Shown here: positions 3,505 to 23,227 of the stretch, in pieces | How positions within the stretch are numbered: the first letter of the stretch is position 1 | Layout: every line of letters starts with the position of its first letter | Source: Halostella salina | GTDB lineage: Archaea > Halobacteriota > Halobacteria > Halobacteriales > Natronoarchaeaceae | NCBI RefSeq assembly: GCF_003675855.1 | Contig: NZ_RCIH01000002.1 | Span: 233,654 to 257,653, forward strand | Direction of reading: 5' to 3' | DNA: 24,000 nucleotides | Program-made: the position numbers and the translations under genes | The notes under the pieces: generated by a model | What the model was told of the DNA's origin: nothing | The model's database searches: none | The model's input: only the letters and a program-made list of their open reading frames with translations

Positions 3505-3650
3505 GCTCGCTGACGTTCGGAGCCGTCCGGGTTACGTCTTGCCAACGCGGAAACCCGGACCGTCGCGGAGCGGCGTCGGTTTCACACCCCGGTTTCGCGT
3601 AGAGATGGATCGAACGGTACCCGGGTCTGTCGAACGGTCGAAGCGGCTGT

Positions 3651-3670
3651 GGATGGGAAACGAAGGGGTG
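3651..3670 (+). promoter_or_regulatory. outlying origin recognition box (ORB-like), ggatgGGAAACGAAGGGGTG
   Basis: The 3' 13 nt 'GAAACGAAGGGGT' is identical to the ORBs at 6268, 6846, 6029(rc) and 8470(rc). It lies in the intergenic gap between oapC and the MATE gene. Confidence 0.65.
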
Positions 3671-3694
3671 CGCGGACGGGACGTGACGGTCCGG

Positions 3695-4465: not shown

Positions 4466-4848
4466 TATCGGCGCGAGACGAGCGCGCTGATCAGCGTCTC
4501 GTCCTTGTGCAGCGTCTGGATCTGGTTCGCCGGCCCGATGACGGTCAGCTTGTTCGTCGACTCCCGCCCCATGAGCCGGTCGAGGAAGCTGGCGTCGTCG
4601 GTCTGGGCGCGCGGGTACGTCTCTATCTCGATCCCGTTGAAGCCGTCGGGGCTGATCTCGGTCATGGTCACCTCGATCAGCCGGCTCTCCTCGTCGGGGG
4701 TGAGTCCCTCCTCCAGAATGACGATGTTGCCCTCGTGGACGCCGTCCAGGATCATCCGGATCTTCTCCATGCTCGTCATCCCGGCCATCCGTTCGCCGCT
4801 GATGAGGTCGATCTGGACGCCGTCGTCCGACTCCTTGGTTTCAGGCAT
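4465..4848 (-). CDS. oapB: DUF2073-family protein of the origin-associated operon (OapB-like)
   Basis: 127 aa with ATG start. It sits 3 nt downstream of the oapA stop and overlaps the oapC start. The family assignment is from memory. Confidence 0.75.
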   Translation of the reverse strand: MPETKESDDGVQIDLISGERMAGMTSMEKIRMILDGVHEGNIVILEEGLTPDEESRLIEVTMTEISPDGFNGIEIETYPRAQTDDASFLDRLMGRESTNKLTVIGPANQIQTLHKDETLISALVSRR

Positions 4849-4851
4849 GGT

Positions 4852-5493
4852 TCACGCGAAGTACTCCGCGATCTTGTCGTACACTTCGTCCATGTTGTCC
4901 CCCTCCAGCGCGGAGAGGGGCACCGTCTCGTGCTGGGGGAAGGCGTTGCGAATGCGCTGCTCGCTGGCCTCGTCCAGGTCGATCTTGTTGGCGAAGATGA
5001 GCACGGGGAGGTCACGGCTCTCGATGATGCCGATCAGCATCGTGTTCACCTGCGTGAACGGGTCCTCCGCCGAGTCGAGCACGTAGATGACGCCGTCGAC
5101 GTCCTCCCGGAGCCAGTGCATCGCCTCCGCGACGCCCTCGGTGGCCTCGCGGGAGCGACGCACGGCGTCGTCTTTCTCCATGTCATACTCGGTGAACTCC
5201 TCGTAGTCGACCTTCGTCGTCACGCCCGGCGTGTCGACGATGTCGATGGTCACCGACTTCCCGTTGCGCTCTATCTCCACGTCCTCCTTCCGGCGCGCCC
5301 GCCGGGTTTCGTGGGGGATGTGGCTCTCCGGCCCGACCGCGTCCCCGGTCCAGTCCCGCGCGATCCGGTTCGCGAGCGTCGTCTTCCCCGCGTTCGGCGG
5401 TCCGTAGATCCCGATCCGTTTGGGCTCCTCCTCGGAGAAGAGTCGCTCCGTCGCCCGTGAGATGCTCTGTCTGAGTCCGTTTATCAGTCCCAT
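4852..5493 (-). CDS. oapA: small GTP-binding protein of the origin-associated operon (OapA-like)
   Basis: G1 'GPPNAGKT', G3 'DTPG' and G4 'NKID' motifs are present. I prefer ATG at 5493, which has GAGG 8-11 nt upstream, over the GTG at 5526. The TATA-like 'cttaag' (5545-5550, minus strand) is too close to 5526 but suits a transcription start near 5521. Confidence 0.8.
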   Translation of the reverse strand: MGLINGLRQSISRATERLFSEEEPKRIGIYGPPNAGKTTLANRIARDWTGDAVGPESHIPHETRRARRKEDVEIERNGKSVTIDIVDTPGVTTKVDYEEFTEYDMEKDDAVRRSREATEGVAEAMHWLREDVDGVIYVLDSAEDPFTQVNTMLIGIIESRDLPVLIFANKIDLDEASEQRIRNAFPQHETVPLSALEGDNMDEVYDKIAEYFA

Positions 5494-5780
5494 CCTGTCC
5501 TCACGCACCCGTAGGTGCTTGTCCACGTAACGACACCGGATTCACTTAAGCCTACGTCAGACACGTATCCGCGGTCGGAGCGGTGTATTCGATGCCGGAT
5601 CCCGCCCGCGTCCCCTGGTCCGGGGCGGGATCCGGGCGATCGTGTTCCGGGTCCGACCGTTTACCTGTCGACCGTGTTCGGTCGATCCTGTTCGTCTCCG
5701 AACGCATCGCAGCAGTGGGGCTAGCAGGCGACGCCTCGTAGTCGGCCAGTCAGGATCTGTGGATCGGTGGAACGACGTTC

Positions 5781-5801
5781 TCCAGTTGAAATGGAGGGGT
5801 G
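5781..5801 (+). promoter_or_regulatory. ORB, TCCAGTTGAAATGGAGGGGTG
   Basis: Matches the window consensus tCCAnnnGAAACGAAGGGGTG, with 'atgg' in place of 'acga'. Confidence 0.7.
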
Positions 5802-5846
5802 TCATTTTCAGTTGAGGTAGTCGCTATACGTTTGTATTCGAAGAAA

Positions 5847-5865
5847 CACCCCTAGTTCGCTTGGA
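5847..5865 (-). promoter_or_regulatory. degenerate ORB (rc TCCAAGCGAACTAGGGGTG)
   Basis: Inverted relative to ORB 5781. The pair flanks a 45-nt AT-rich spacer (5802-5846). Confidence 0.45.
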
Positions 5866-6028
5866 GTCGAAACGCCCGGGTGAGGATCGTTCAACGGTGG
5901 TCGAACGGTGATCGATGTAGTCGGGAAACCGACCGGACTGAATCACCCGGGAACAAACGGACAGCACAGTGGAACGAGAGGACTGCGTTGATGGTCACGT
6001 GATGAGGGTCCCCCACCCTTGACCCCCC

Positions 6029-6049
6029 CACCCCTTCGTTTCGGGTGGA
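6029..6049 (-). promoter_or_regulatory. ORB with G-string (rc TCCACCCGAAACGAAGGGGTG followed by GGGGGG)
   Basis: Exact GAAACGAAGGGGTG core on the minus strand, forming the left border of the AT-rich element. Confidence 0.85.
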
Positions 6050-6080
6050 ACGACGGACGGGTGGGGTGGGGGGAAGCCCG

Positions 6081-6210
6081 TTCTCTAGTGTCGCATGGTT
6101 TTATGTATAATGACCTGTAACCAGACCCGTAGTACAAGAACAACTATTTTTGTTGTTTGAATTCTTCGAAAGGATCGATTAGGATCCACTAGAGACTCGC
6201 TAGTAGGTTG
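6081..6210. other. AT-rich duplex unwinding element (DUE) candidate
   Basis: 47 of 70 nt are A/T in 6101-6170, within a window that is otherwise visibly GC-rich. The stretch is bracketed by inverted ORBs (6029 minus, 6268 plus) and by a 9-bp inverted repeat tctctagtg/cactagaga (6082-6090 and 6187-6195). Confidence 0.75.
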
Positions 6211-6267
6211 GACCGGCAACACTTCGCCCCCGATGTTCGGCTCCCCCGCCCCCGGCTTGGTTCCGTC

Positions 6268-6288
6268 TCCAGTTGAAACGAAGGGGTG
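6268..6288 (+). promoter_or_regulatory. ORB with G-string, TCCAGTTGAAACGAAGGGGTG followed by GGGGTG
   Basis: Exact core, forming the right border of the AT-rich element. It is inverted relative to ORB 6029. Confidence 0.85.
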
Positions 6289-6743
6289 GGGGTGTTCCGA
6301 CCGCGATGTTCTCCGCCCTTCGAACACCTGTCCACGGCCCGTCGTTTCCGGGGTGTCGACGAACCTGCTGGGGCCCGACCTGATGGACTCCGACACTCTG
6401 GATCGACCCGGGAGCGATCGGCTCTCGACCTGCCCGATCCAGTTCCCGGCTCTCTCGGAACTCCATCGGAGTTCGATCCGGCCCTGGCTCCACGGTGGTC
6501 CTGACCCGACGCAACCCGAATCGTGACCCGGAGCAGCCTCGAACCGGAACCGACCAGCTTCCCGGTTCTCCCGATTCGGACCACGCTGTCGTTCCGGTCC
6601 GACGACGCCGGTGGCGAACACGAACCGGCATCCTGTGGTCGGACTTCGGCCCGAAACTCCGCTTCTGAGCCGTTTCGCCTCGGTTTTCCGGCAATACCGG
6701 ATCCCTCCACCGAGAGGGAAGATTTTAAGACCCTGGTGTACCT

Positions 6744-6766
6744 CCACTTCGTTTGCATCAACTGGA
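6744..6766 (-). promoter_or_regulatory. degenerate ORB (rc TCCAGTTGATGCAAACGAAGTGG)
   Basis: Shares TCCAGTTGA and AAACGAAG with the consensus, with a 2-nt insertion and a weakened G-run. Confidence 0.5.
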
Positions 6767-6845
6767 CGAACCGCGAACACGTATTGACTGCGAATCCGGT
6801 ATCTGAGGCCATTACGACGGGTTCGCTCCGTTTCGGCGGGCGGTT

Positions 6846-6866
6846 TCCAGATGAAACGAAGGGGTG
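6846..6866 (+). promoter_or_regulatory. ORB, TCCAGATGAAACGAAGGGGTG
   Basis: Exact core, ending 14 nt before the orc1 ATG. Confidence 0.85.
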
Positions 6867-6879
6867 AATCAACCAACGA

Positions 6880-8403
6880 ATGTCGGACGAGGACACGGGA
6901 CCCGAGCAAGCGGAGGGCGTGGAGGTAGACTCATCGCGGGACTTCGACGTGGAGCTGGACGACGTCGTCCTCGAGGACGAGGAGGAGGCGAATCAGGGCC
7001 TGTTCGATGACCTGCTGAGCGGCGAACCGATCTTCGAGAACAAGGAGGTGCTGCGCCCGTCGTACACGCCACACGAGCTCCCGCACCGCAAGGAGCAGAT
7101 CAACAAGATGGCGACGATCCTCGTCGCCGCGCTACGGGGCGAGACGCCGTCGAACATCCTCATCTACGGGAAGACGGGGACCGGCAAGACGGCGAGTGCG
7201 AAGTTCGTCAGCCAGGAACTGGAGAGCACGTCCCAGAAGTACCAGGTGCCCTGCGAGGTCGAGTACATCAACTGCGAGGTGACGGACACGCAGTACCGCG
7301 TGCTCGCACAGCTGGCGAACAAGTTCATCGAGGAGAACGAGCGGCTCATCGACGAGTGGCTCGACGACCTCCGGGACCTTCGGGAGGCGGCGTCCGACGA
7401 CGCGGCCGAAGCTCCGACCGTGCTGGCCGAGGCCGAGCCGATCGCGGGCACCGAGTTCGACTCCGTCGAGGCGATCGACGAGCGCATCGCCGAACTGGAG
7501 GCCGACCGCGAGGAGTTCGAGACCGTCCCGATGACGGGGTGGCCGACGGACCGCGTGTACAGCGTGTTCTTCGAGGCGGTCGACTATCACGAGCGCGTGG
7601 TCGTCATCATGCTGGACGAGATCGACAAGCTCGTCGAGAAGTCCGGCGACGACACGCTGTACAACCTCTCCCGGATGAACTCGGAACTGGACAACTCGCG
7701 CGTGTCGATCATGGGGATCTCGAACGACCTGAAGTTCACCGATTTCCTCGACCCCCGCGTCAAGTCCAGCCTCGGCGAGGAGGAGATCGTCTTCCCCCCG
7801 TACGACGCCAACCAGCTCCGGGACATCCTCCAGCACCGCTCGGACGTGGCGTTCAAGGCCGACGCGCTGACCGGCGACGTGATCCCGCTGTGTGCGGCCT
7901 TCGCCGCGCAGGAGCACGGCGACGCCCGCCGCGCGCTCGACCTGCTCCGGACCGCCGGCGAACTCGCGGAGCGCGACCAGTCGGAGGTCGTCGACGAGGA
8001 CCACGTCCGGAAGGCACAGGACAAGATCGAACTCGACCGCGTCGTCGAGGTCGTTCGCACCCTCCCGACGCAGTCGAAGATCGTCCTCTTCTCGATCATC
8101 CTGCTGGAGAAAAACGGCGTCCACAACATCAACACCGGCGAGGTGTACAACATCTACAAGCGCCTCTGCGAGGAGATAGACGCCGACGTGCTCACCCAGC
8201 GCCGGGTGACCGACCTCATCAGCGAACTCGACATGCTGGGCATCGTCAACGCCGTCGTCGTCTCGAAGGGCCGCTACGGCCGGACGAAGGAGATCAGCCT
8301 CTCGGTCCCCATCGACGAGACCGAGGCCGTCCTCCTCAGCGACTCCCGGCTGGGCGACATCGAGGACGTCCAGCCGTTCGTCCAGGCGCGGTTCGACAAC
8401 TGA
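6880..8403 (+). CDS. orc1: Orc1/Cdc6 replication initiator
   Basis: AAA+ Walker A 'GKTGTGKT', Walker B 'IMLDEID', and a C-terminal winged-helix region. It has an acidic N-terminus and an acidic insertion of about 70 aa. Its position next to the ORB cluster fits the call. Confidence 0.95.
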   Translation: MSDEDTGPEQAEGVEVDSSRDFDVELDDVVLEDEEEANQGLFDDLLSGEPIFENKEVLRPSYTPHELPHRKEQINKMATILVAALRGETPSNILIYGKTGTGKTASAKFVSQELESTSQKYQVPCEVEYINCEVTDTQYRVLAQLANKFIEENERLIDEWLDDLRDLREAASDDAAEAPTVLAEAEPIAGTEFDSVEAIDERIAELEADREEFETVPMTGWPTDRVYSVFFEAVDYHERVVVIMLDEIDKLVEKSGDDTLYNLSRMNSELDNSRVSIMGISNDLKFTDFLDPRVKSSLGEEEIVFPPYDANQLRDILQHRSDVAFKADALTGDVIPLCAAFAAQEHGDARRALDLLRTAGELAERDQSEVVDEDHVRKAQDKIELDRVVEVVRTLPTQSKIVLFSIILLEKNGVHNINTGEVYNIYKRLCEEIDADVLTQRRVTDLISELDMLGIVNAVVVSKGRYGRTKEISLSVPIDETEAVLLSDSRLGDIEDVQPFVQARFDN

Positions 8404-8469
8404 CCCGGCCACGTCAACCCATCACCCGGGAACCGGACCCGCTGCCGGCTCCGTGAAACGGTTTCCCAC

Positions 8470-8490
8470 GACCCCTTCGTTTCTCGTGGA
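8470..8490 (-). promoter_or_regulatory. ORB downstream of orc1 (rc TCCACGAGAAACGAAGGGGTC)
   Basis: Exact GAAACGAAGGGGT core on the minus strand, in the 128-nt gap between convergent orc1 and the signal peptidase gene. Confidence 0.8.
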
Positions 8491-8531
8491 GATCGGGGCT
8501 AACCACCGCCAAGAACCACCGTACCGGCCGG

Positions 8532-9488
8532 TCACAGCTTTGCGAACTGGAGTCGAACCCACCCGAGCAACGGGATCCGAACTTCGGCGCGCCCCTTGAT
8601 CCACTCGGACTTGACGACGGTGCTCCGGCCGGCGACCTGGTCGTAGTACGGCGTGTCGTCCCCCTTCGTGATGAACCCGTCGTGGGGGGCCGGACAGTTC
8701 CGGACCTCCTCGCAGGTGTCGCCCCGGAGGTGGTCCTCGTCGGCTCTGGCGACCCACTCCTCGTCCTCCTCGACGTAGATATGCGCCCGATGTATGATCG
8801 GCACCCCGTTGTCCCCGTTCGGCTGGAACACGATCACGTCGCCGTAGCTGCCGAACGACCGGACGCCGTTCTCCTGGCCCTGCTCGAAGGTCACGACTCC
8901 GGCGACGGCGTCCTCCCCGGCGAACCGGTTCTCGTCGACGATGAACACGAGGTCGTTTTTCTCCATGTGGGGCTCCATGCTCCCGCTCTCGACGGCGACC
9001 AGCGGCGGCCAGATGCCGCTGACCGCAAAGAGGAACAGGCCGACCAGCGCGACCAGCGCGACCGTGCTCAGCAGGTCACGGACCGCGGCCACGCCCTCGC
9101 TGTCGGCGGTGAGAAACCAGGCCACCGGCTCCTCGCGCACGCTGGGACCGCCGTCCGCCGACCCGTCCTTGGCCGTCGGACCGACGTCGTCGGGTGACTC
9201 GGACGGGCCGACCGTAACCGATGGCTCGGCGGCCGAGTCGGACCTCCCGCCCGTACTCGATCCCGGATCCACGTTCGGCGACGCGGCGGTAGCGCTGTCG
9301 TCGCGGTCGGCGTCCACGTCGCTCTTGGGACCGGCGTCGGACCCGTCTTCCGGCGCGGCGTTCGTCCGGCCGTCGGGAGCGTCGTCCGCGTCCGTTCCCC
9401 GAGGACCGTCCGCGCCCCCTTCCGGGGGTTCGTCGGCCTCGTCCGGGGGGTCGCGCTCGCGGTCGTCGCCGGTACCGGCGTCGGTCAT
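8532..9488 (-). CDS. sec11: signal peptidase I, archaeal Sec11/S26B type, with a long acidic N-terminal extension
   Basis: A membrane anchor (LLSTVALVALVGLFLFAV) is followed by the catalytic-Ser box 'VESGSMEP' and the His box 'IIHRAH'. The first 130 aa or so are D/E/P/G-rich low complexity. I prefer ATG at 9488 over the GTG at 9494. Confidence 0.85.
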   Translation of the reverse strand: MTDAGTGDDRERDPPDEADEPPEGGADGPRGTDADDAPDGRTNAAPEDGSDAGPKSDVDADRDDSATAASPNVDPGSSTGGRSDSAAEPSVTVGPSESPDDVGPTAKDGSADGGPSVREEPVAWFLTADSEGVAAVRDLLSTVALVALVGLFLFAVSGIWPPLVAVESGSMEPHMEKNDLVFIVDENRFAGEDAVAGVVTFEQGQENGVRSFGSYGDVIVFQPNGDNGVPIIHRAHIYVEEDEEWVARADEDHLRGDTCEEVRNCPAPHDGFITKGDDTPYYDQVAGRSTVVKSEWIKGRAEVRIPLLGWVRLQFAKL

Positions 9489-9626
9489 CGTCACCGCCTA
9501 CTGGCCTCCGCAAAATCAACCTTCTGTTCGTGGGAGCCCGTTGAACGACCCCTGCCGCCGAGTCGCCGCGCGTCGTCGCCCGACGTTCCGCTACGCTTTT
9601 GCACGCCGCCGACTTTTGTCGGCGGT

Positions 9627-11336
9627 GTGCCACTGGAGGCCCCCGCCCGGATCGTCAGCGAACTCACGAGCCGGGGGTACAACGCCGACCGCGAGGCGGT
9701 GACGCTCATCGCTTCCGCGGATGATCCGGCCCGCGCGCTGGAGCGCGTCGTCGAGGCCGCACCGGAGGGTGCGCTCCGACTCTCGGTCGACCACGTCCGC
9801 GCGGTGCTTGACGCCGACGACGCGGCCGGCGACCCCGCGACGATGAGCGAGTCCGCCTCCACCCGAGCGGGTGCGGTCGATGCACCGGCCGACGCCGGTA
9901 GCGACGCTGCCGATGCTGCCACCGCTACCGACGCTGGGGGCGACGCGCCTGACCACGCGGCCACCCCGGATGCCGCGACCACGGCGGACACAGGTGGAGC
10001 GCGTTCGGCCACCGCGGACAGCCAAGACCCCTCTACTTCGACTGCAGACCCGGACGCTTCGACCGATCGATCGTCGAAAAACTCTCCATCTGAAACAACG
10101 GTATCGGCCGACCGGAGCACCGACCAGTCGCTCCGCTCGGTCGACATCGCGAACGACATCACCGGTCGGAGCACGGGGACGGGCGCGTACGAGGACTTCG
10201 TCGCCGTGTTCCGGGACCGCTACGAGCGCCTGGGCGACAAACTCAGATCCAGGGTAAACCACCGCCCGGCGGAGGCGATCCAGTCGATGCCCGGCGGGAG
10301 CGAGGCGTCGATGGTCGGGATGGTCAGCGACATCCGGTCGACGGCCAGCGGCCACTGGCTCGTCGAACTGGAGGACCCGACGGGGACGTTCCCCTGCCTC
10401 GTAATGAAGGACCGCGACATCGCGGCGCTGGTCGAGGAGCTGCTCCACGACGAGATCATCGCCGTCGAGGGATCGCTGGCGGACGACGGCGGGATCCTCT
10501 TCGTCGATGCGATGCACTTCCCGGACGTGCCGCGGACGTACTCGCCGAACACGGCCGACCGCCACGTCCAGGCCGCGCTCATCAGCGACATCCACGTCGG
10601 CAGTCAGGAGTTCATGGCCGACGCGTGGTCGCGCTTCGCCGACTGGCTCCACACGCCCGAGGCCGAGGCCATCGAGTACCTGCTCATCGCGGGGGACATG
10701 GTCGAGGGCGTCGGCGTCTACCCGGACCAGGACGAGGAACTCGACATCGTCGACATCTACGACCAGTACCGGCAGTTCTCGGAACACCTGAAGGAGGTGC
10801 CCGGCGACATCGAGATCGTGATGATCCCCGGGAACCACGACGCCGTCCGCCTCGCCGAACCCCAGCCGGCGTTCGACGAGGAACTGCGGAACATCATGTC
10901 GGCGCACGACGCCCGGATCACGGGCAACCCCTCGACCGTCACGCTGGAGGGCGTCTCGATCCTCATGTACCACGGCGTCTCGCTGGACGAGGTGATCGCC
11001 GAACTTCCGGAGGAGAAGGCCAGCTACGACGACCCCCAGAAAGCGATGCACCACCTCCTGAAGAAGCGCCACGTCGCCCCGCAGTACGGCGGCCACCTCC
11101 GCCTCGCGCCCGAGGAGAAGGATTACCTCACCATCGACGAGGTGCCGGACATCTTCCACACCGGCCACGTCCACAAACTCGGCGTCGGCAAGTACCACAA
11201 CGTCCTCTCGATCAATTCGGGCTGCTGGCAGGAACAGACCGCCTTCCAGCAGTCGGTCAACATCGACCCCGACGCCGGGTTCGCGCCGGTCGTCGACCTC
11301 GACACGCTGGAGCCGACGATCCGTAAGTTCCACTAA
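9627..11336 (+). CDS. polD1: DNA polymerase II (PolD) small subunit DP1
   Basis: Calcineurin-type phosphoesterase motifs 'ISDIHVGS', 'AGDMVEG', 'PGNHD' and 'TGHVH'. The N-terminal 'MPLEAPARIVSELTSRGYNADREAV' looks like the haloarchaeal DP1 N-terminal domain. GTG start. A D/A/T-rich low-complexity insert spans roughly aa 70-170. Confidence 0.93.
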   Translation: MPLEAPARIVSELTSRGYNADREAVTLIASADDPARALERVVEAAPEGALRLSVDHVRAVLDADDAAGDPATMSESASTRAGAVDAPADAGSDAADAATATDAGGDAPDHAATPDAATTADTGGARSATADSQDPSTSTADPDASTDRSSKNSPSETTVSADRSTDQSLRSVDIANDITGRSTGTGAYEDFVAVFRDRYERLGDKLRSRVNHRPAEAIQSMPGGSEASMVGMVSDIRSTASGHWLVELEDPTGTFPCLVMKDRDIAALVEELLHDEIIAVEGSLADDGGILFVDAMHFPDVPRTYSPNTADRHVQAALISDIHVGSQEFMADAWSRFADWLHTPEAEAIEYLLIAGDMVEGVGVYPDQDEELDIVDIYDQYRQFSEHLKEVPGDIEIVMIPGNHDAVRLAEPQPAFDEELRNIMSAHDARITGNPSTVTLEGVSILMYHGVSLDEVIAELPEEKASYDDPQKAMHHLLKKRHVAPQYGGHLRLAPEEKDYLTIDEVPDIFHTGHVHKLGVGKYHNVLSINSGCWQEQTAFQQSVNIDPDAGFAPVVDLDTLEPTIRKFH

Positions 11337-11552
11337 GAAAGCCCTTGCTCGGCCTTGGCAGGCCTCGCTGCGCCCTTTCAATGTCCGCCGCCAGAATCGC
11401 TGCGCGATTCTCGCTAAGGCCCGCCAGTTTGCGCGAGCGCCAGCGGTCGCTGGCGCACGCTTCGAGTGCCTGCCCTTCCCCGTCCGCTGGCGGCGCTCGA
11501 CGCGGTCTCGCGCACGCCAGCGCGGCCGGAAGGCTGTGTCGATGCTGTCACG
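11337..11552 (+). repeat. copy A of a roughly 215-nt structured intergenic element
   Basis: nt 11337-11440 are identical to 14522-14625 (104/104). Similarity continues to about 11552/14736. Contains hairpins at 11393-11411, 11437-11456 and 11485-11522. Confidence 0.85.
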
Positions 11553-11578
11553 ACCACGCCTGGAGGGTCAACCCCGAG

Positions 11579-12004
11579 CTACGGCTCCATCCGGTACTTC
11601 ACGGTCGGCGTGCCGTCGAACCGCGGTCCGGGACCGGCCTCGGCGAAGCCGACGCTCTCGGCCGCGTCGGCGACGTGGGGAACGGAGTCCGGCGCGATCA
11701 GTTCGACCGGCATCCCCTCGCGCTCGGCGAAGCGGACCGGTTCGCCGAGCAACTGCTCGCAGGCGTCCGCGGTCCCATCGACCTGCGTCACGTGGACGCA
11801 GTTCTCGCGCGCATCGAAGCTGACGAAGCCCAGCAGGCCCGGGTCCTGCTCCTCGGCGTCCGCGTTCGGGTCCGTCTCTTCCTCCTCGGACTCGGCGACG
11901 CGGACCGTCCGGTCGTGGACTAGGTTGCGCATCACGTCCGTCGGGGCGTCGGCGATCGCGGCCATGTCGCCGGCGTCCGCCTCAACGGCGTCCCGTATCC
12001 TCAT
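11579..12004 (-). CDS. GNAT family N-acetyltransferase
   Basis: About 141 aa and acidic, with a C-terminal 'AESVGFAEAG' matching the acetyl-CoA-binding end of GNATs. ATG at 12002-12004 lies about 29 nt downstream of the TATA-like 'atttat' (minus strand, 12031-12036). The GTG at 12022 is the less likely start. Confidence 0.75.
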   Translation of the reverse strand: MRIRDAVEADAGDMAAIADAPTDVMRNLVHDRTVRVAESEEEETDPNADAEEQDPGLLGFVSFDARENCVHVTQVDGTADACEQLLGEPVRFAEREGMPVELIAPDSVPHVADAAESVGFAEAGPGPRFDGTPTVKYRMEP

Positions 12005-12100
12005 CGTGTCCACGGTAGTCACCCACGCACATAAATCCGCGGCGTGCGTGGGATGATCACAAGCGTCACACTTTCAATCTCGGGGGCGCTACGTCGACCC

Positions 12101-13237
12101 ATGACCGACGGTCCGGAGGGACACCAGCGCTGTGACTTCTGCCGGTTGCCCCACGCCGTCGACCCGGTCGAACTCGAACATCAGGGGACCACCTACGAGT
12201 TCTGTTCGTCCGCCTGCCGGCGGGCGATGCAGGAGTCGGACCGGGTGTTCACCGAGTACCACGGACATCGCCGGTTCGTGCCCGGCGTCGCCGCGCTCGA
12301 CGACTCCCTCCCCGAGGGGTTGCCGCGCAACTCCTTCGTCCTGCTCGCGGGGCAGGCCGGAACCCGAACCGAGGCACTCCACGCCGAACTCGTCTGGCGG
12401 GCGCTCAGACGGGGCGAACCGGCGGTCGTCGTCACCTTTCAGGAGCCCCCGACGTCCGTCGTCGAGACGTTCCTCACGATGGAGTGGAACGTCCTTCCCT
12501 ACCTCGAATCCGGCCAGCTCCGGATCCTCGACTGCTTTACCTACCGCGTCAGCGACCGCGACCGGATGCACGACCGGATGAGCGCGTGGAACCGCCATCT
12601 CCACCGTCTCACCGAGCCGGCGACCGAAACCGTCCGCGACCCCAGCGACATGAGCGAACTGGCGAACAAGCTGGACAACTGCCTCGAAGCCGAGTCGATG
12701 GTCGACACCGGCGTCGTGCTGATCGACTCGCTGACGGAACTCGGGACGCTCGTCCAGCCGGTGCAGGCGTACGACTTCGTCAAGGACGTGCGCGCCGACG
12801 TCTGCAAGGGCCGGTTCGTCCCCGTGTTCGCCGGGGCGACGTTCAGCGGCGAGAACGGCTCGTTCCCGCACGACCTGGACTACCTCGTCGACGGGATCGT
12901 CGACCTCGAACTCAACGGCGGGATCGTCGAGGACACGCTCCTCCGCCGGGTCCGCATCCGGAAGATGTCCGGCGTGCTCACCATCTCCGAGTGGACCGCG
13001 TTCGAGTACACGAGCGACACCGGACTCGTCCCGTTCGACCCCGACGAGGAGATGGCGGGGTCGGACCCCGCCGCTCCCGACGACCACCCCGACGACAGCC
13101 CGCCACCTGACGAGGAGTCACCGACCGAGTCCGGACCGACTCAAGAGACAGACAGAGCGGAGACGTCGACGCCCGACCCCACCGACGCCGACGCGCCGAA
13201 GGCCGACGCGGACGCCGCCCCGTCCGGCGACGGGTAG
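12101..13237 (+). CDS. TRASH zinc-finger fused to a KaiC/RecA-like domain lacking the P-loop lysine
   Basis: C-x2-C-x20-C-x3-C (CDFC...CSSAC) is a TRASH/YHS-type finger. 'LLAGQAGTRTE' sits where GPPGTGKT is expected. Walker-B-like 'VVLIDSLTEL', a KaiC-like 'RRVRIRKMSG', and an acidic P/D/E/T tail are present. ATG at 12101 lies about 27 nt after 'ctttcaatc' (12070-12078). Confidence 0.85.
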   Translation: MTDGPEGHQRCDFCRLPHAVDPVELEHQGTTYEFCSSACRRAMQESDRVFTEYHGHRRFVPGVAALDDSLPEGLPRNSFVLLAGQAGTRTEALHAELVWRALRRGEPAVVVTFQEPPTSVVETFLTMEWNVLPYLESGQLRILDCFTYRVSDRDRMHDRMSAWNRHLHRLTEPATETVRDPSDMSELANKLDNCLEAESMVDTGVVLIDSLTELGTLVQPVQAYDFVKDVRADVCKGRFVPVFAGATFSGENGSFPHDLDYLVDGIVDLELNGGIVEDTLLRRVRIRKMSGVLTISEWTAFEYTSDTGLVPFDPDEEMAGSDPAAPDDHPDDSPPPDEESPTESGPTQETDRAETSTPDPTDADAPKADADAAPSGDG

Positions 13238-13341
13238 TCCCGGATCTTCCCTCCAAAATTTCCGGAGATGGACACAGTTATGAGCGCGGTACGGCTACGA
13301 CATCCCATGACCGTCGTTGCCACGCGCCCGCGGGTGGTCGG

Positions 13342-14520
13342 ATGCGAGTAGTCGCCAAGTTCGGGGGGACCAGCCTTGGGAGCGGCGAGCGCGTCGACCG
13401 CGCCGCCGACTCCATCGCCACCGCCGTCGAGGAGGGCCACGAGATCGCCGTCGTCGCCAGCGCCATGGGGTCGACGACGGACGAACTGCTCGACGAGATC
13501 ACCTTCGAGACGGAGGACGAGGACCGCGCCCAGATCGTCAGCATGGGCGAGCGCACCAGCGTCCGCATGCTCAAGGCCGCCCTCGCAGCCCGCGGGATCG
13601 ATGCGATCTTCCTCGAACCGGGCAGCGAACAGTGGCCGGTCATCACCGACGCCGCCGGCGAGGTCGACGTCGAAGAGACCAAGCGCCGCGCCGGCGAACT
13701 CGCGGCCCAGCTCGACGGCGTCGTCCCCGTGATCACCGGCTTCCTCGCCGAGGACGGCGACGGCAACGTCACCACGCTCGGCCGCGGTGGAAGCGACACC
13801 ACTGCCGTCATGCTCGGCCGCTACATGGACGCCGACGAGGTCGTCATCGTCACCGACGTCGAGGGCGTCATGACCGGCGACCCCCGCGTCGTCGAGGGCG
13901 CGCGCAACGTCGGCGAGATCACCGTCGACGAACTGCGCAACCTCTCGTTCCGTGGCGCGGAAGTGGTCGCGCCCAGCGCCCTCTCGTACAAGGCCGGCAA
14001 CATGAGCGTCCGCGTCGTCCACTACCAGCACGGCGACCTGCTCACCGGCGGCACCCGGATCGAGGGCGAGTTCCGGAGCCTCGTCGACATGCGCGAGGGA
14101 TCGCTGGCCTGCATCACCGTCGCGGGCCGCGCCATCCGCAACAGCCCCGGCATCCTGCGTGACCTGACGACCGCGCTCGGCGACGCCGAGGTCAACGTCG
14201 ACGCTATCGCCAGCGGGATGGACTCCGTGACGTTCTACGTCGACGAGTCCGAGTCCGAGGCCGCCGAAACGGTGCTCCACCGCGAGGTCGTCGACCAGGA
14301 ACCGCTCTCCAGCGTCACCGTCGAGGAGGGGCTGGCCGTCATCCGCGTCACCGGCGGCGAACTGCCGAACCGGCCCGGCGTGATGCAGGAGATCGTCCAG
14401 CCGATGGCCGCGGCCGGCATCAACATCCACGACCTCATCACCAGCGCCACCTCCGTCGCCGCCTTCGTCGACTGGGACGACCGCGAGCAGGCGCTGGAGA
14501 TCATGCAGAACCGCTTCTAG
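13342..14520 (+). CDS. lysC: aspartate kinase
   Basis: N-terminal 'KFGGTSLG', amino-acid-kinase fold motifs, and C-terminal tandem ACT-like regions. 392 aa. Confidence 0.92.
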   Translation: MRVVAKFGGTSLGSGERVDRAADSIATAVEEGHEIAVVASAMGSTTDELLDEITFETEDEDRAQIVSMGERTSVRMLKAALAARGIDAIFLEPGSEQWPVITDAAGEVDVEETKRRAGELAAQLDGVVPVITGFLAEDGDGNVTTLGRGGSDTTAVMLGRYMDADEVVIVTDVEGVMTGDPRVVEGARNVGEITVDELRNLSFRGAEVVAPSALSYKAGNMSVRVVHYQHGDLLTGGTRIEGEFRSLVDMREGSLACITVAGRAIRNSPGILRDLTTALGDAEVNVDAIASGMDSVTFYVDESESEAAETVLHREVVDQEPLSSVTVEEGLAVIRVTGGELPNRPGVMQEIVQPMAAAGINIHDLITSATSVAAFVDWDDREQALEIMQNRF

Positions 14521-14521
14521 G

Positions 14522-14736
14522 GAAAGCCCTTGCTCGGCCTTGGCAGGCCTCGCTGCGCCCTTTCAATGTCCGCCGCCAGAATCGCTGCGCGATTCTCGCT
14601 AAGGCCCGCCAGTTTGCGCGAGCGCTGACGGTCGTCAGCGCACGCTTCGAGTGCCTGCCCTCCCCCGTCCGCTGGCGGGGCTCACTACCGTTCGCCCACG
14701 CCAGCGTGGCCGGTGGGGGACATCAAACCTGTCACG
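14522..14736 (+). repeat. copy B of the roughly 215-nt structured intergenic element
   Basis: See copy A. Hairpins are at 14578-14596, 14622-14641 and 14670-14706, and the last two carry compensatory substitutions relative to copy A. Confidence 0.85.
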
Positions 14737-14866
14737 GATCCCGCATCCGGTGGTCGGATCGATCCGGTTCGGAGACTCTCTCTCGCTGGACGATCGCCGA
14801 GTCGACCGCCGTGGTACCGCGACCCTCGGAACTGTTATACGTAAACCCGGCGTACAATTGATTGCA

Positions 14867-15061
14867 ATGGCAAACGGAACTGTTGATTTCTTCAACAACA
14901 CTGGCGGCTACGGTTTCATTTCCACCGAGGACGCGGACGACGACGTTTTCTTCCACATGGAGGACGTTGGCGGTGCGGACCTCGAAGAAGGACAGGACAT
15001 CGAGTTCGACATCGAGCAGGCCCCCAAGGGTCCGCGCGCGACGAACGTCGTTCGCAACTGA
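14867..15061 (+). CDS. csp: cold-shock domain protein
   Basis: 64 aa. 'GTVDFFNNTGGYGFI' contains the RNP-1-like motif and 'VFFHMEDV' the RNP-2-like motif. ATG start. TATA-like 'gttatac' lies about 33 nt upstream. Confidence 0.93.
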   Translation: MANGTVDFFNNTGGYGFISTEDADDDVFFHMEDVGGADLEEGQDIEFDIEQAPKGPRATNVVRN

Positions 15062-15089
15062 GTCTCTCTCGACACCACTAACTCGCGAT

Positions 15090-15094
15090 TTTTC
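15090..15094 (+). terminator. oligo-T tract downstream of csp
   Basis: A T5 run 29 nt after the csp stop, followed by hairpin cgaccg-acag-cggtcg (15104-15119). Archaeal termination commonly uses oligo-T. Confidence 0.4.
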
Positions 15095-15173
15095 GGGTGC
15101 TACGACCGACAGCGGTCGCGTCGCGCTGCCGACATCCCAACGAACTATTTTCTTCGACCCGTAGCACGCCGCC

Positions 15174-15578
15174 ATGGATCGGCTGACGACGGTCGACACC
15201 GTACACGAGGAGGGGTCGTGGCTCTTTACGATCCGCGACGAGTACGACGAACTCGACGAGGTCCTGTTGCTCCCCTGCGAGGACGGCGTCGAGGCGTGGA
15301 TCAACCGCTGCACCCACGAGGCACAGCGCTTCGACCGCGGCTTCGGCGCGGCGGTCCGGGACGGACAGCTCGTCTGCCCCAAGCACGGGTCGATGTTCGA
15401 CACCTGCTCGGGCGACTGCGACAACGGCGACGCCGCCGGCACGACGCTGCCCGGCGTCGACGTGACGGTCAACCGCGGCGACGTGTACCTGATCGACGAC
15501 GACGTGGCGTTCCAGCACGAGGGCGGCATCGACGACGGCGACGACGGCCCGAGTTCGACCTCCCACATCGGGCTCTGA
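15174..15578 (+). CDS. Rieske [2Fe-2S] domain protein
   Basis: 'CTHEAQRF' (CxH) and 'CPKHGSMF' (CxxH) ligand boxes. ATG lies about 26 nt downstream of TATA-like 'actattttc' (15144-15152), consistent with a leaderless mRNA. Confidence 0.88.
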   Translation: MDRLTTVDTVHEEGSWLFTIRDEYDELDEVLLLPCEDGVEAWINRCTHEAQRFDRGFGAAVRDGQLVCPKHGSMFDTCSGDCDNGDAAGTTLPGVDVTVNRGDVYLIDDDVAFQHEGGIDDGDDGPSSTSHIGL

Positions 15579-15740
15579 GCGGGTGCGTCGCCACACCGGG
15601 CATCGAAATGTCCCGACCTGCCGACCGATGGATACGTCCGTCCACCGTCACCCGCCGTTCGCCGTCGGGTCGCGGATCTGCCCGACGTCCCGCAGATCCC
15701 GCCGATTAGTTTGTTCACGGAGCCGGGCGTACCGGGAGCC

Positions 15741-17081
15741 ATGCGAGCGTACAAGACGAAGATGGTCGAGCGGATCGAGTTGCCCGACCGCGAGGAGCGC
15801 GAGGCGAACCTTGAGGCCGCCGGGTACAACGTGTTCAATCTGGACGCGGACGACGTGTACGTCGACCTGCTCACCGACAGCGGAACGGGCGCGATGAGCG
15901 ACGAGCAGTGGGCCGCCCTCCTCCGCGGCGACGAGGCCTACGCCGGCAGCGAGAGCTTCCAGGAGCTGGAGGCGGCCGTCCGCGACGTGATGGGGTTCGA
16001 GCACGTCGTCCCGGCCCACCAGGGCCGGGGCGCGGAGAACGTCCTCTACGGCGCGCTGGTCGGCGAGGGCGACGCCGTCCTCAACAACACGCACTTCGAC
16101 ACGACCCGCGCACACGTCGCCAACCAGGGGGCTGAGGCCGTCGACTGCCCCGCCAACGGCGCGCACGACCCCGACGCTGCCGGCGATTTCAAGGGCAACT
16201 TCTCGGTCGAGCGCGCCCGCGAACACGTCGAGCGCGTCGGCGCGGAGAACGTCCCCGTCGTCGTCCTGACGATCACGAACAACTCCGCCGCCGGCCAGCC
16301 CGTCAGCGTCGAGAACACCCGCGAGGCCGCCGCGTTCGCCGACGAGATAGACGCGACGTTCGTGATCGACGCCTGCCGGTTCGCCGAGAACGCCTACTTC
16401 GTCCGCGAGCGCGAACCCGGCTACGGCGACGCCTCCATCGCCGCGATCGCCCGCGAACAGCTCGGCTACGCCGACGCCCTCGTCATGAGCGGCAAGAAGG
16501 AGGGGCTGGTCAACGCCGGCGGCTTCGTCGCCGTCGCCGACGACGACCTGTTCGAGCGCGCCAAGCAGCGCGCCATCCTCTACGAGGGGTTCCCGACGTA
16601 CGGCGGGATGGCCGGCCGCGACCTCGCGGCGATGGCCGTCGGCCTCCGCGAGGCGGTTGACCTCGGCCGCGTGCGTGACCGCGTCGAGCAGGTCCGCGAC
16701 CTGGGTGAACGGCTCCGCGACGCCGGGATCCCGGTGTACTGGCCGGCTGGCGGCCACGCCGTCTACGTCGACGCCGGCGACCTGCTCTCGGGGATCCCGA
16801 CCGAGCGCTTCCCCGGGCAGGCGCTGGTCTGCGAGCTGTACCGCGAGGGCGGCGTCCGCGCCGTCGAACTCGGCGAGTTCGCGTTCCCCGGGGTCGACAG
16901 GCCGGATCTCGTCAGGCTGGCGCTCCCGCGCCGGACGTACGACCGCGACCACGTCGACCACGTCGTCGAGACGCTCGCGGCCGTCCGGGATCGTGCCGAC
17001 GCGGTGACCGGCCTCGAAGTGGTCGACGAACCCGAGATGGCCGAACTCCGGCACTTCTCCGCCCGGCTCCAGCCCGTCTGA
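15741..17081 (+). CDS. tnaA: tryptophanase (beta-eliminating lyase family)
   Basis: N-terminus 'MRAYKTKMVERIEL', 'DLLTDSGTGAMS', and a PLP-lysine context 'VMSGKKEGLVN'. About 446 aa. Tyrosine phenol-lyase cannot be excluded from sequence alone. I prefer ATG at 15741 over the upstream alternative start at 15711. Confidence 0.88.
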   Translation: MRAYKTKMVERIELPDREEREANLEAAGYNVFNLDADDVYVDLLTDSGTGAMSDEQWAALLRGDEAYAGSESFQELEAAVRDVMGFEHVVPAHQGRGAENVLYGALVGEGDAVLNNTHFDTTRAHVANQGAEAVDCPANGAHDPDAAGDFKGNFSVERAREHVERVGAENVPVVVLTITNNSAAGQPVSVENTREAAAFADEIDATFVIDACRFAENAYFVREREPGYGDASIAAIAREQLGYADALVMSGKKEGLVNAGGFVAVADDDLFERAKQRAILYEGFPTYGGMAGRDLAAMAVGLREAVDLGRVRDRVEQVRDLGERLRDAGIPVYWPAGGHAVYVDAGDLLSGIPTERFPGQALVCELYREGGVRAVELGEFAFPGVDRPDLVRLALPRRTYDRDHVDHVVETLAAVRDRADAVTGLEVVDEPEMAELRHFSARLQPV

Positions 17082-20586: not shown

Positions 20587-22005
20587 ATGCCACCGACCGT
20601 CGCCGTCGCGCACTATCCGGAGGGTGCCGGCCACGCCACGCGGATGCTCGCCGTCGCCGACGCCATCGCGGACGCCGGAGCGACCGTCCGGATGGCGGGC
20701 GGCGGCGCGGGCACGGAGTTCGTCGCGCTCAACGGCTACGACGAGTTCGAGCCGACGAACGTCGACTTCATCGACACGTATCAGGGCGGGTCGACGTGGC
20801 GGGTGGCGAGCCAGAGCCTTCCCGCGAGCCTCGCCCGGATCGCCGACTACCGGGCGTGGCTGCGCGAAACCGACCCGGACGCGCTGGTCACCGACGACAT
20901 GTTCGCGGCGATGGCGGCGTCGCGCTGTGACGTGCCGCTGTACGTGCTGAAACACGACATGCCCGGGCTGTACCGCGACCGGATCGAGCGGACCGGCGCG
21001 CGGTTCCACACGTCGTTCCAGCTGTCGGCGACGCGGGAGTTCTTCTACCCGGTCGTCTGGCCCGAATCCGGGGTCGATCCGTCGGGGGCGACGCGTATCC
21101 CGCCGGTGGCGCTGGAAGGCGATGCCGAGGACGGCGAGGACCGCGAGAGCGCGGACGTGGTAGTCGTCCCGAGCCACTACTCGGAGCTGGGCCGCATCGC
21201 CACGCAGCTCCGCCGGCAGGGACACGACGTAATAAACGTGGCCGACGACGACTGGGACCCCGTCCCGTCGCTGCTTCCGTACATCCGCGACGCGGACGCC
21301 GTCGTCTGCTCGGGCTACTCCACGATCATGGACGCCGCGGTGGCCGGAACGCCCTGCGTCGTCCACCCGGCGACCGACGAGCAGGACGCCGTCGCGGACT
21401 GGCTGGAGCGGTTCGACGTGGACGGCTTCGCCGTCGCCGAGGAACCGCTCGACGTGTTAGACGCCGTCGCCGACCCGCCGGACGCCCCGTCGTTCGGGAA
21501 CGGCGCGGCGTACATTGCCGAGACGGTCCTGAACGACCTCCGTGACCCGGACCCGTACGCCGCGCCGGAGCCCGACGACCCGGCGGACGCCCCGGACGCG
21601 CCCGACGTGTCGACCGCCTCCCGCCTCGGCACCGTCGCCGCGGTGCCGACGCTCTGTGCCGTCGTCCTGTCGACGGCGGGCGGGGCGGCGTCGCCGCTGC
21701 AAGCGATCGCCGGCCTCGCGGCTGCGGGCCGTCGCGTGTCCGCCGCCGGACGGCGGGCGGGCATCGCTGCCCTCGGGGCCGGGCGGCGCGTCGCGGAAGT
21801 GGCTGCAGGCGGGACGCGTCGTGCCGCAGAAGCGGTCGCTGCCGGAGCGCGTCGCGCCGGCGGAGCGGCTGCAGGCGGGGGGAAAACTGCGACGGGTCGC
21901 GCTGCCGACGCCGCGGGAACGGCGGCCGCCGCGGTCGGCGCGGCCGGCCGCGCACTCGCTCGTCGGTGCCGGGCCCTCGCCCGTCTCGCGCCGTCGCGAC
22001 CGTAG
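20587..22005 (+). CDS. GT-B fold glycosyltransferase (MurG/GT28- or GT1-like) with a hydrophobic segment and an Ala/Gly/Arg-rich basic tail
   Basis: N-terminal 'HYPEGAGHATRMLAVADAI' is a G-H nucleotide-sugar GT-B signature. C-terminal lobe 'VVCSGYSTIMDAAVAGTPCVVHP'. ATG at 20587 is divergent from the SDR gene. The last 120 aa or so are a hydrophobic stretch followed by the AAGRR.. repeats. Confidence 0.65.
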   Translation: MPPTVAVAHYPEGAGHATRMLAVADAIADAGATVRMAGGGAGTEFVALNGYDEFEPTNVDFIDTYQGGSTWRVASQSLPASLARIADYRAWLRETDPDALVTDDMFAAMAASRCDVPLYVLKHDMPGLYRDRIERTGARFHTSFQLSATREFFYPVVWPESGVDPSGATRIPPVALEGDAEDGEDRESADVVVVPSHYSELGRIATQLRRQGHDVINVADDDWDPVPSLLPYIRDADAVVCSGYSTIMDAAVAGTPCVVHPATDEQDAVADWLERFDVDGFAVAEEPLDVLDAVADPPDAPSFGNGAAYIAETVLNDLRDPDPYAAPEPDDPADAPDAPDVSTASRLGTVAAVPTLCAVVLSTAGGAASPLQAIAGLAAAGRRVSAAGRRAGIAALGAGRRVAEVAAGGTRRAAEAVAAGARRAGGAAAGGGKTATGRAADAAGTAAAAVGAAGRALARRCRALARLAPSRP

Positions 22006-22120
22006 CGCCCGGCGTCGTCGTACCGCAGCGATCGCCTGCTGTCGCCGTGACGCGCCGACTGTGTTCCACGATACCTAGTGACGAATTACCACTTTACGGC
22101 TCGGCGACATACCGCCGGCC

Positions 22121-23227
22121 GTGACCGAACTCGAAGCCCACTACGAGGCGGCGGTGGAGCGCCGCGGCTACGACCGCGTCGACGGGCCGTTCGGCGACCT
22201 GTCGGCGTCGTACTCCCGGGAGCGGTTCGCGTTCGCGGACGACGCCGACGCGCTCGCCGCGGCATCGCCCGAGGACACGCTCGTCTCGGTCGGTGTCTCG
22301 CCCACGGGCACGCCCCACGTCGGGACGCTGGGGCAGATCCGGACGGCGATCGACTGCCAGCGCGCCGGCTTCGACGTGCAGCTGGCGGTCGCCGACCAGG
22401 TGGTGTACAACGCCGGCGGGGGCGACGCCGCGACGCTCCGCGAGCGCGCCGAGCGGTACCGGCGGTTCGCCGCGGCCCGCGGCTTCGACGCCGACGACGG
22501 GCGGCTGTACGTCCAGAGCGAGGCCGACGACGTGTTGCGTGCGGCGTTCCGCCTCGGGCGGACCTACGACCCCGACGCGGGCGAGGAGTGGGACGAGTCG
22601 ACTGCGTTCGAGGAATCGCTCGCCACGGCGTACGACGACGCCGATGACCCCTCGGACGACCGGGACGATACCCCCGACGACTCGCCCGACGCGACCGATT
22701 TCTCCGGATCGCTGTGCGGCCTGCTCATGGCGGCCGACACCGTCGGGCCGCTGGCCGACGACTTCGGTCCCGAGAGGACGTACGACCGCGTCGTGCTGGC
22801 GCTCGGCGCGGACAACGTCGGGATGGCCCGGCGGTTCGACGCGGTACGCGAGCGGGCCGGCGTCGACGGACGCGTCGTCGGCCTGTTCTCCCGGCTCGTC
22901 CCCGGCGTCGACGGGACCCCGAAGATGTCGAAGGGGATCGACGGGTCTGGCATCCACCTCGGCATGTCTCCGGACCGGATCCGCGAGCGCGTCACCGATC
23001 CGGTGCTGGACGCGGACCGCCCGTCCGAGTCGGTCGTCTTCGAGATGCTGCGGCTGGTGCCGCCCGGCGACGGCGATGCTCCGGGCAATCTGCGCGACGC
23101 CTGCGCCGCGGGGGACGCCCGCTGGCGCGACGCCGTCGACGAGTGCGCCGACCACCTCGCGGCGGCCGCCGAGGCGTGGCAGGGGACTGCCAGCATCCGA
23201 CCCGACGGCCCCGAGGCGACCCGGTAA
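22121..23227 (+). CDS. class I aminoacyl-tRNA synthetase-like protein, divergent bacterial-type TrpRS paralogue
   Basis: 'SPTGTPHVGTLG' (HIGH region), 'AVADQ' (compare VDLHA), 'LYVQSE', 'LLMAAD', 'LGADN' (compare GEDQ) and 'KMSKG' (KMSKS) are collinear with bacterial TrpRS as I recall it. There is an acidic insert of about 45 aa. GTG start lies about 27 nt after 'ctttac' (22092-22097). Confidence 0.7.
   Translation: MTELEAHYEAAVERRGYDRVDGPFGDLSASYSRERFAFADDADALAAASPEDTLVSVGVSPTGTPHVGTLGQIRTAIDCQRAGFDVQLAVADQVVYNAGGGDAATLRERAERYRRFAAARGFDADDGRLYVQSEADDVLRAAFRLGRTYDPDAGEEWDESTAFEESLATAYDDADDPSDDRDDTPDDSPDATDFSGSLCGLLMAADTVGPLADDFGPERTYDRVVLALGADNVGMARRFDAVRERAGVDGRVVGLFSRLVPGVDGTPKMSKGIDGSGIHLGMSPDRIRERVTDPVLDADRPSESVVFEMLRLVPPGDGDAPGNLRDACAAGDARWRDAVDECADHLAAAAEAWQGTASIRPDGPEATR

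Follow-up and report, generated by a model that had tools for sequence, protein, structure and literature searches.

An orphan class Ic aminoacyl-tRNA synthetase-like gene of Halostella salina with probable kinship to the TybB-type abortive synthetases

In describing the Lactobacillus iners tyrocitabine (tyb) cluster, Patel et al. 2022 (Cell 185:1487) reportedly spoke of an 'abortive tRNA synthetase' and an 'Amadori synthase'. In the tyb pathway, as outlined in a review, TybC glycosylates L-tyrosine with phosphoribosyl pyrophosphate (PRPP), an Amadori rearrangement follows, and TybE then reduces the product (PMC13235161). TybB, which resembles tyrosyl-tRNA synthetase (TyrRS), adds AMP to the carboxylate of the sugar-modified tyrosine and, in the same outline, charges no tRNA (PMC13235161). 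TybB homologues are reported from gene clusters of bacteria, Candidatus phyla and archaea (PMC13235161). Tyrocitabine-type pathways date from 2022, and their hallmark enzyme, which halts at the adenylate, is known from one characterised cluster. A 24,000 nt stretch of the Halostella salina genome (RefSeq contig NZ_RCIH01000002.1; positions 233,654 to 257,653), here called the window, carries at 22121–23227 (+) a gene described in an initial annotation as a degenerate bacterial-type tryptophanyl-tRNA synthetase (TrpRS) paralogue possibly coupled to the adjacent glycosyltransferase (GT). The analysis reported here indicates that this gene probably encodes an orphan, diverged, adenylate-forming member of the TybB-type 'abortive tRNA synthetase' family. 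What is new is that it belongs to a monophyletic haloarchaeal clade without any cassette partner gene.

The open reading frame (ORF) at 22121–23227 was found to be genuine, encoding 368 amino acids (aa) plus a stop (protein P0001), and its GTG start at position 22121 is supported because homologues start at the same residues. Nothing supported the long antisense ORFs over the same interval, which are to be expected in DNA of 74% G+C. The protein matched Pfam family PF00579 (tRNA-synt_1b, class I W/Y synthetases) with an E value of 7e-12, thus its resemblance to a synthetase is not due to chance, and a weak match to tRNA-synt_1f was the sole other Pfam match. An AlphaFold model (predicted local distance difference test, pLDDT, 87.3; predicted template modelling score, pTM, 0.89) was compared with known structures using Foldseek, and the best matches were archaeal/eukaryotic-type TrpRS and archaeal TyrRS (E 1e-13 to 1e-11; TM 0.5–0.67), with alignments covering nearly the full length of both. 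When a profile of 26 close homologues was searched against PDB sequences, M. jannaschii TyrRS was found at 1e-15 and Aeropyrum pernix TrpRS at 5e-15, and bacterial TrpRS only at ~1e-3. A bacterial TrpRS origin was therefore rejected on the weak profile match, the archaeal/eukaryotic-type Foldseek matches and the position of bacterial TrpRS elsewhere in the tree. The protein, which had been called bacterial-type, is nearest to the archaeal/eukaryotic-type TyrRS and TrpRS and forms a separate lineage in trees; it looks bacterial only in the xAAD string and in having KMSKS instead of KMSSS.

The window protein scored below every cut-off of the NCBIfam TrpRS and TyrRS equivalog models, with 34 bits against 176.75 for TIGR00233, 40.8 against 891 for NF008928 and 33.6 against 451 for NF008925 among the TrpRS models, and 39.3 against 220 for the archaeal TyrRS model NF006330. 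It was correctly suspected of being an extra paralogue, as the genome (99% complete) contains one TyrRS (434.8 bits; cut-off 220) and two long TrpRS (499.8 bits, cut-off 478, and 1043.9 bits, cut-off 891) elsewhere. These three genes and the window gene account for the five PF00579 matches in the genome, one TrpRS being matched as two stretches. The contig of the window also carries both TrpRS genes (coordinates 510825–511664 and 550617–551843), which are 40 kb apart and lie downstream of the paralogue at distances of ~255 and ~295 kb. The archaeal TyrRS (NF006330) and archaeal-eukaryotic TrpRS (PDB 3a04) gave the best profile and fold matches and share the pocket Asp (D206) with the window protein, but the latter differs from archaeal TyrRS in having HxGT rather than HxGH, a KMSKS-type rather than KMSSS motif, ~50 extra N-terminal residues and a separate clade. 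The protein is a class Ic (TyrRS/TrpRS-fold) paralogue of a separate lineage and most probably not a translation enzyme. Cyclodipeptide synthases, which are tRNA-dependent, also have a class Ic-like fold and are defined by the absence of the HIGH and KMSKS ATP motifs. This identity was ruled out, as both motifs are present and conserved in the window protein and no cyclodipeptide synthase Pfam match was obtained.

A profile built only from haloarchaeal sequences was searched against 1.84 billion representative proteins and retrieved 162 at E<1e-10, many of them 330–370 aa long and aligned over nearly their full length. Cassette-type proteins were retrieved over positions 5–340 at E 1e-50 to 1e-70, a Streptomyces cluster being found at 3.5e-65. 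The family is carried by actinomycetes (Streptomyces, Kitasatospora, Nocardia and others) and also by Clostridia, Bacilli, Alphaproteobacteria, Acidobacteria, Bacteroidota, candidate phyla radiation (CPR) bacteria and DPANN archaea, and its signature comprises P-H-x-G-T, D92, R-x-Q132, Y171, L-M-x-A-D206-F, G229-x-D-E-H, KMSKS, S276 and W353. At 77 non-haloarchaeal loci examined with tblastn, the gene was accompanied by genes for a TrpD-like phosphoribosyltransferase (75 of 77), a Zn-dependent alcohol dehydrogenase-type protein (Zn-ADH; 70), a bacterial-type TyrRS (66) and a HAD phosphatase (48), and an archaeal-type TyrRS replaces the bacterial one in the loci where the latter was not matched. 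Each of four cassette genomes checked has, in addition to the cassette TyrRS and the aminoacyl-tRNA synthetase (aaRS)-like gene, another two full-length genes encoding class Ic synthetases. Fusion proteins of the TrpD-like::aaRS-like and HAD::aaRS-like types were also seen. This cassette matches the published tyb architecture and is itself already in print. In a tree that included canonical archaeal and bacterial TyrRS and TrpRS as outgroups, in which the wrong-frame ORF X_L127 was disregarded, the family was monophyletic with an approximate likelihood ratio support (SH-aLRT) of 99, and a haloarchaeal clade (98) was separated from a cassette clade (98).

No TrpD-like, dehydrogenase, TyrRS or HAD genes were found within 6–10 kb of the gene at 14 haloarchaeal loci representing at least eight genera or lineages. 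Searching the genome containing the window with cassette proteins gave matches at housekeeping level only, namely 103 bits and 32% identity to a probable trpD, and no more than 37 bits for the dehydrogenase. A search of 5.8 billion proteins identified 36 close relatives of 320–389 aa, and those with source names (Halostella, Halorarius and Halobacteriales metagenome-assembled genomes, MAGs) were all haloarchaeal, the others being metagenome records. The gene is present as a single copy in 23 of 401 Halobacteria genomes, representing 6 of 91 genera; 22 of the 23 copies are free of internal stops, one contains a stop codon and one is truncated. The copy in a carrier from the genus designated g9 shares 67% identity with that of Halobacterium rubrum. 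Its G+C content at third codon positions (GC3; 0.94) equals that of the tryptophanase gene in the window, suggesting that it has been maintained for a long time. Judged from these sequence measures and from a ratio of non-synonymous to synonymous substitution rates (dN/dS) below 1, the window gene is an accessory gene that has long been resident, and the constraint on it is real though relaxed.

All of the motif strings quoted in the initial annotation were found in the protein, these being SPTGTPHVGTLG (residues 60–71), AVADQ (89–93), LYVQSE (129–134), LLMAAD (201–206), LGADN (228–232) and KMSKG (268–272). The 26 aligned haloarchaeal proteins share 40–87% identity with the window protein, and PHVGT, D92, Q132, Y171, D206, GAD, PK, S276 and W353 are invariant among them, with KMSK(S/G) nearly so. 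An hhalign comparison with archaeal TyrRS (probability 98%; 219 columns) paired H66-V-G-T69 of the HIGH-equivalent P-H-V-G-T (residues 65–69; 22313–22327, +) with H-I-G-H. LLMAAD (22721–22738, +), the side-chain pocket strand, was aligned with MQALD, the Asp and Gln of which fall on D206 and M203, respectively. GADN (residues 229–232; 22805–22816, +), in which G229 is invariant, aligns with the G-x-D-Q of TyrRS, and KMSKG (22922–22936, +) is the KMSKS loop, which reads KMSKS in most relatives. The invariant pocket Tyr, His, Gln and Gln of archaeal TyrRS align with Ser56, Val94, Met203 and Asn232, so that among the aligned pocket residues the Asp alone is kept.

The altered motifs had been read as degenerate. 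However, among 76 family representatives P65 is conserved in 100%, H66 in 83%, G68 in 96%, T69 in 92%, D206 in 97% and K268 and K271 in 96% each, thus HxGT is a family-wide signature and not random decay, and GADN has been derived from the GxDE typical of the family. All 76 cassette-type members have Glu at position 232, where the crown group of the haloarchaeal clade, which includes the window protein, has Asn. Arg130 and an acidic residue at 94 are retained in basal members of this orphan clade, Glu232 and His233 partly so; the crown group has replaced them all. At the 46 family-conserved positions, 29 residues are kept in the window protein, including all those of the ATP motifs, and 17 are changed. 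An acidic insert of about 45 aa had also been proposed, but residues 149–195 are mostly a family-wide segment that includes a helix (162–174) and the invariant Y171. Only ~10 residues (~180–189; 22658–22687, +) are inserted relative to close relatives, as seen from the insert positions in hhalign. This acidic loop is peculiar to the window protein and its nearest relative, is missing from most clade members and is longer in P0003, and it lies in the low-confidence loop of the AlphaFold model (residues 171–190; pLDDT <50 at 177–183). The C-terminal region, previously called short, extends 96 aa beyond KMSKG, compared with 110 aa after KMSSS in the TyrRS encoded by the same genome.

Like TybB, the window protein is a TyrRS/TrpRS-like Rossmann enzyme outside translation that retains the ATP signatures, and its relatives are found in clusters that combine a TrpD-family PRPP/Amadori enzyme, a reductase and an aaRS-like enzyme. 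It differs in that the haloarchaeal clade lacks TybC-like and TybE-like partners, a spare TyrRS, a non-ribosomal peptide synthetase and an exporter at the loci examined, and in the 17 of 46 family-conserved positions that are changed. Most likely, the window protein would bind ATP and an acid of the aromatic amino-acid type and, to judge from the retained motifs, form an acyl-adenylate. This step would run without the TrpD-like Amadori synthase, reductase, phosphatase and spare TyrRS that usually accompany it. As several pocket residues have changed, the protein probably departs from its cassette-borne relatives either in substrate or in what becomes of the adenylate. Expression would probably be from the gene's own promoter, with no functional tie to the adjacent GT. 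The fold, the homology to the family, the lack of partner genes, the preserved ATP motifs and the altered pocket positions were shown directly; catalysis by adenylate formation, the class of substrate and its change, and promoter function are inferred. The ATP-dependent chemistry away from tRNA that the initial annotation had proposed thus fits the TybB-type family, but the coupling to a GT in the manner of MshC does not.

The genes around the aaRS-like gene correspond to those listed in the initial annotation, with a short-chain dehydrogenase/reductase (SDR) gene on the minus strand, a weak GT4-like ORF upstream, an NmrA gene downstream and a gene for a beta-eliminating lyase of the tryptophanase family ~5 kb upstream. 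The GT-like ORF (~20620–22005, +) is on the same strand as the window gene, which starts 115 bp downstream of it. Its match to Glyco_transf_4 was 25.7 bits, below the Pfam cut-off of 28.5, and NCBIfam and PDB sequence searches gave no match. A GT adjoining the aaRS-like gene was not found at any of 13 other haloarchaeal loci, two congeners included, for which Pfam gene tables of 8 contigs were supplemented by ORF clustering of five 20-kb genome stretches. The initial annotation had itself named lack of the pair in other genomes as an argument against its model, and the pair was absent from 13 of 13. In H. litorea, a gene for an HNH-repeat protein is followed by SDR (minus strand) and then by the aaRS-like gene, with no GT between the last two, indicating that the GT-like ORF in the window is an insertion peculiar to this genome. 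GT, SDR, NmrA and tryptophanase were thus rejected as functional partners by comparative context. Tryptophanase is found in 181 of 401 Halobacteria genomes and outside Halostella lies megabases from the aaRS-like gene, and its proximity, already suspected of being coincidental, reflects genus-level synteny only.

No neighbour conserved across haloarchaeal genera was found within ±1.5 kb in the 23 genomes, and the only genes recurring within 6–10 kb were those for an M29 peptidase (4 lineages) and an aminotransferase-like protein (3 of those). The Peptidase_M29 (aminopeptidase) gene was located at 10109–11203 in locus L124, ~8350–9450 in L133, ~7365–8888 in L134 and 3739–4830 in L012. It is directly downstream of the aaRS-like gene in Halosimplex and the genus designated g61, ~800 bp downstream in g67, and convergent in a metagenome contig. 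In three of these lineages (Halosimplex, g61 and g67), the other flank of the aaRS-like gene is occupied by an aminotransferase/beta-lyase-like gene. These neighbours may represent shared synteny or a functional pair.

Upstream of the gene, an element at 22072–22096 (+; TACCTAGTGACGAATTACCACTTTA) was found to be invariant at 22 of 25 positions among three Halostella species, namely H. litorea, the species of record CP040678 and the species containing the window. It ends in a TATA-like TTTA, 25–28 nt before the GTG start, and in two of the three species no GT is located upstream. This element is nearly invariant, whereas the encoded protein is only 63–72% identical across Halostella. It is probably the gene's own promoter for a leaderless transcript, and besides the TATA-like box it may contain a site bound by a regulator.

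Several cassette loci of the wider family had further features. On a hypersaline metagenome contig (L123; coordinates 5066–16377), genes for a DDE transposase and a haloarchaeal-type tyrosine recombinase adjoin a complete tyb-like cassette. This cassette, which looks like a mobile island, includes aaRS-like, TrpD-like, P-type-ATPase-like, phosphodiesterase, Zn-ADH and archaeal-type TyrRS genes. Its family member (P0046) is acidic (pI 4.3). One quick tree placed P0046 as the sister of the orphan clade (SH-aLRT 93), which would imply cassette loss, but with canonical outgroups it nests in the cassette clade, so that the sister placement was not reproduced and cassette loss is no more than a possibility; a metagenome scan with P0046 as the query gave no match. 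In a 0.6 Mb Aenigmatarchaeota MAG (L105; coordinates 3171–13207), the cassette is beside an Eco57I-type restriction-modification gene and an integrase gene, and has genes for an APH-like (aminoglycoside phosphotransferase-like) kinase and a CbiR-like TIM-barrel protein. Two CPR MAGs have a bacterial-type tRNA-Tyr(GTA) inside the cassette (L112, 15841–15924; L117, 15842–15925; both on the minus strand), between a ComF-like phosphoribosyltransferase gene and the archaeal-type TyrRS gene, and the two layouts are almost identical although the MAGs are binned to different phyla. An orthogonal TyrRS/tRNA pair was considered but rejected, as tRNA-Tyr is confined to these two CPR loci and ten other loci lack it. 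The tRNA at the Aenigmatarchaeota locus is tRNA-Thr(CGU) with an intron.

In a subclade including P0098, P0122, P0139 and relatives, part of which is fused to the TrpD-like protein, P-H-x-G-T is replaced by P-T-x-G-T, so that the first His of HIGH is lost and KMSKS is kept. An extra radical-SAM enzyme, methyltransferase, GT2 and a 363-aa protein without a Pfam or NCBIfam family are encoded at 49 of the 77 cassette loci, nearly all of them actinomycete. The actinomycete radical-SAM enzyme (L037; coordinates 7108–8004) is weakly viperin-like (PADLOC pVip; E 4e-11). An anti-phage defence system was rejected, as no PADLOC match was obtained beyond generic radical-SAM similarity.

Several observations weigh against an active TybB-type enzyme in Halostella. 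The 17 altered positions include Glu232 (100% in cassette-type members), replaced by Asn, and Arg130 (92%), replaced by Tyr, and Gly60, Asp94 and His233 are also lost. Partner genes are found neither nearby nor elsewhere in the genome, so there is no evident substrate source. In comparisons between Halostella species, protein identity was 72% and 63% and dN/dS 0.49 and 0.34; these dN/dS values are about three times those of tryptophanase and SDR in the same genome pairs (86–93% identity; dN/dS 0.14–0.16), and the protein could be losing catalysis. In size, its C-terminal helical domain resembles the domain with which archaeal TyrRS binds tRNA, and tRNA binding is possible. In addition, the TybB-type assignment was made from cluster architecture and the description in the review, not from the TybB sequence, and the activity of haloarchaeal members is predicted from sequence and a model. 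The same elevated dN/dS and lost residues, including the family-invariant Glu232, together with the patchy distribution (23 of 401), the stop-containing and truncated copies and the partner genes not found, would fit a pseudo-enzyme that keeps the fold for binding or regulation, as HisZ does for HisG, or a relic drifting to loss, with no adenylate formed in either case. We regard this as unlikely, though a sizeable chance should be left to it, since the 26 proteins have near-invariant PHVGT and KMSK(S/G) and invariant D92, Q132, Y171, D206 and W353, the dN/dS values are well under 1, the upstream element has been conserved and GC3 is host-like. HisZ, a HisRS paralogue partnering HisG, is comparable in that the family is associated with, and sometimes fused to, a PRPP-dependent transferase, but HisZ is a class II, non-catalytic protein, whereas the family keeps its catalytic signatures and the haloarchaeal clade has no transferase partner. 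It is rather doubtful, but conceivable, that the partner-less clade represents a re-purposed abortive synthetase for a different adenylate instead of a relic, which would either make a haloarchaeon-specific metabolite of the aminoacyl-AMP type from a substrate provided by ordinary metabolism or reverse or sequester tyrocitabine-like adenylates of brine neighbours.

Adenylation by class I synthetases is reversible, and an enzyme conferring immunity against tyrocitabine-like adenylate antibiotics of neighbours, by pyrophosphorolysis or sequestration, could be envisaged. A full cassette with its own TyrRS is found on the hypersaline mobile island with its haloarchaeal-type integrase and in DPANN archaea, suggesting that producers may share the habitat, and a fast-evolving, patchy accessory gene fits a role in conflict. 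This proposal is nevertheless pure inference and distinctly unlikely, as the crown group has lost residues that are conserved in the producers' enzymes, which argues against the same ligand, and no PADLOC or resistance-model match was found. An auxiliary tRNA-charging synthetase, that is a third TrpRS or second TyrRS resistant, for example, to stress or an inhibitor, would be in keeping with the HIGH-like and KMSKS-like motifs, the C-terminal helical domain and the near full-length Foldseek alignments. Odd duplicated or auxiliary synthetases are known, such as LeuRS2 of Halobacteria and TrpRS II of Deinococcus (PMC9437257). These are likewise extra synthetase-like genes beside housekeeping enzymes, but, as close paralogues, they have kept the ability to bind or charge tRNA, whereas the window protein scores 5–20 times under every equivalog cut-off. 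Such a role is very unlikely given also the replacement of the TyrRS pocket Tyr, His, Gln and Gln, the occurrence in 6 of 91 genera only, the relaxed constraint and a characterised member of the lineage that, according to the review, charges no tRNA (PMC13235161).

Highly improbable is the model of the initial annotation, in which the protein is an MshC-like ligase that makes an aminoacyl-sugar or aminoacyl-lipid together with the upstream GT, SDR and NmrA proteins. A gap of 115 bp to the GT-like ORF, which precedes the gene on the same strand, would agree with it, as would the activity of the wider family on a sugar-modified amino acid described in the review (PMC13235161). Against it, the pair is missing from all 13 other loci, the aaRS-like gene follows SDR in H. 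litorea, conservation of the promoter-like element holds whether or not the GT is present, and the GT match is itself sub-cut-off. MshC, the cysteine:GlcN-Ins ligase of mycothiol synthesis, is also a class I synthetase paralogue, one that employs an aminoacyl-adenylate on a non-tRNA, sugar-linked substrate. However, it belongs to the CysRS-like subclass and not to class Ic, its adenylate is passed to an amine whereas the tyb adenylate is the product, and the window gene has no conserved GT partner.

The names currently attached to these proteins in databases, tryptophanyl-tRNA synthetase, nucleotidyl transferase family protein and hypothetical protein, are likely mis-annotations, and the model of a GT-coupled pathway is removed as unsupported. 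The haloarchaeal clade retains the abortive-synthetase enzyme alone, with intact ATP motifs, a remodelled pocket and its own promoter-like element. If the protein is active, it would represent a second use of abortive-synthetase chemistry, independent of the sugar-tyrosine pathway, in genetically tractable organisms.

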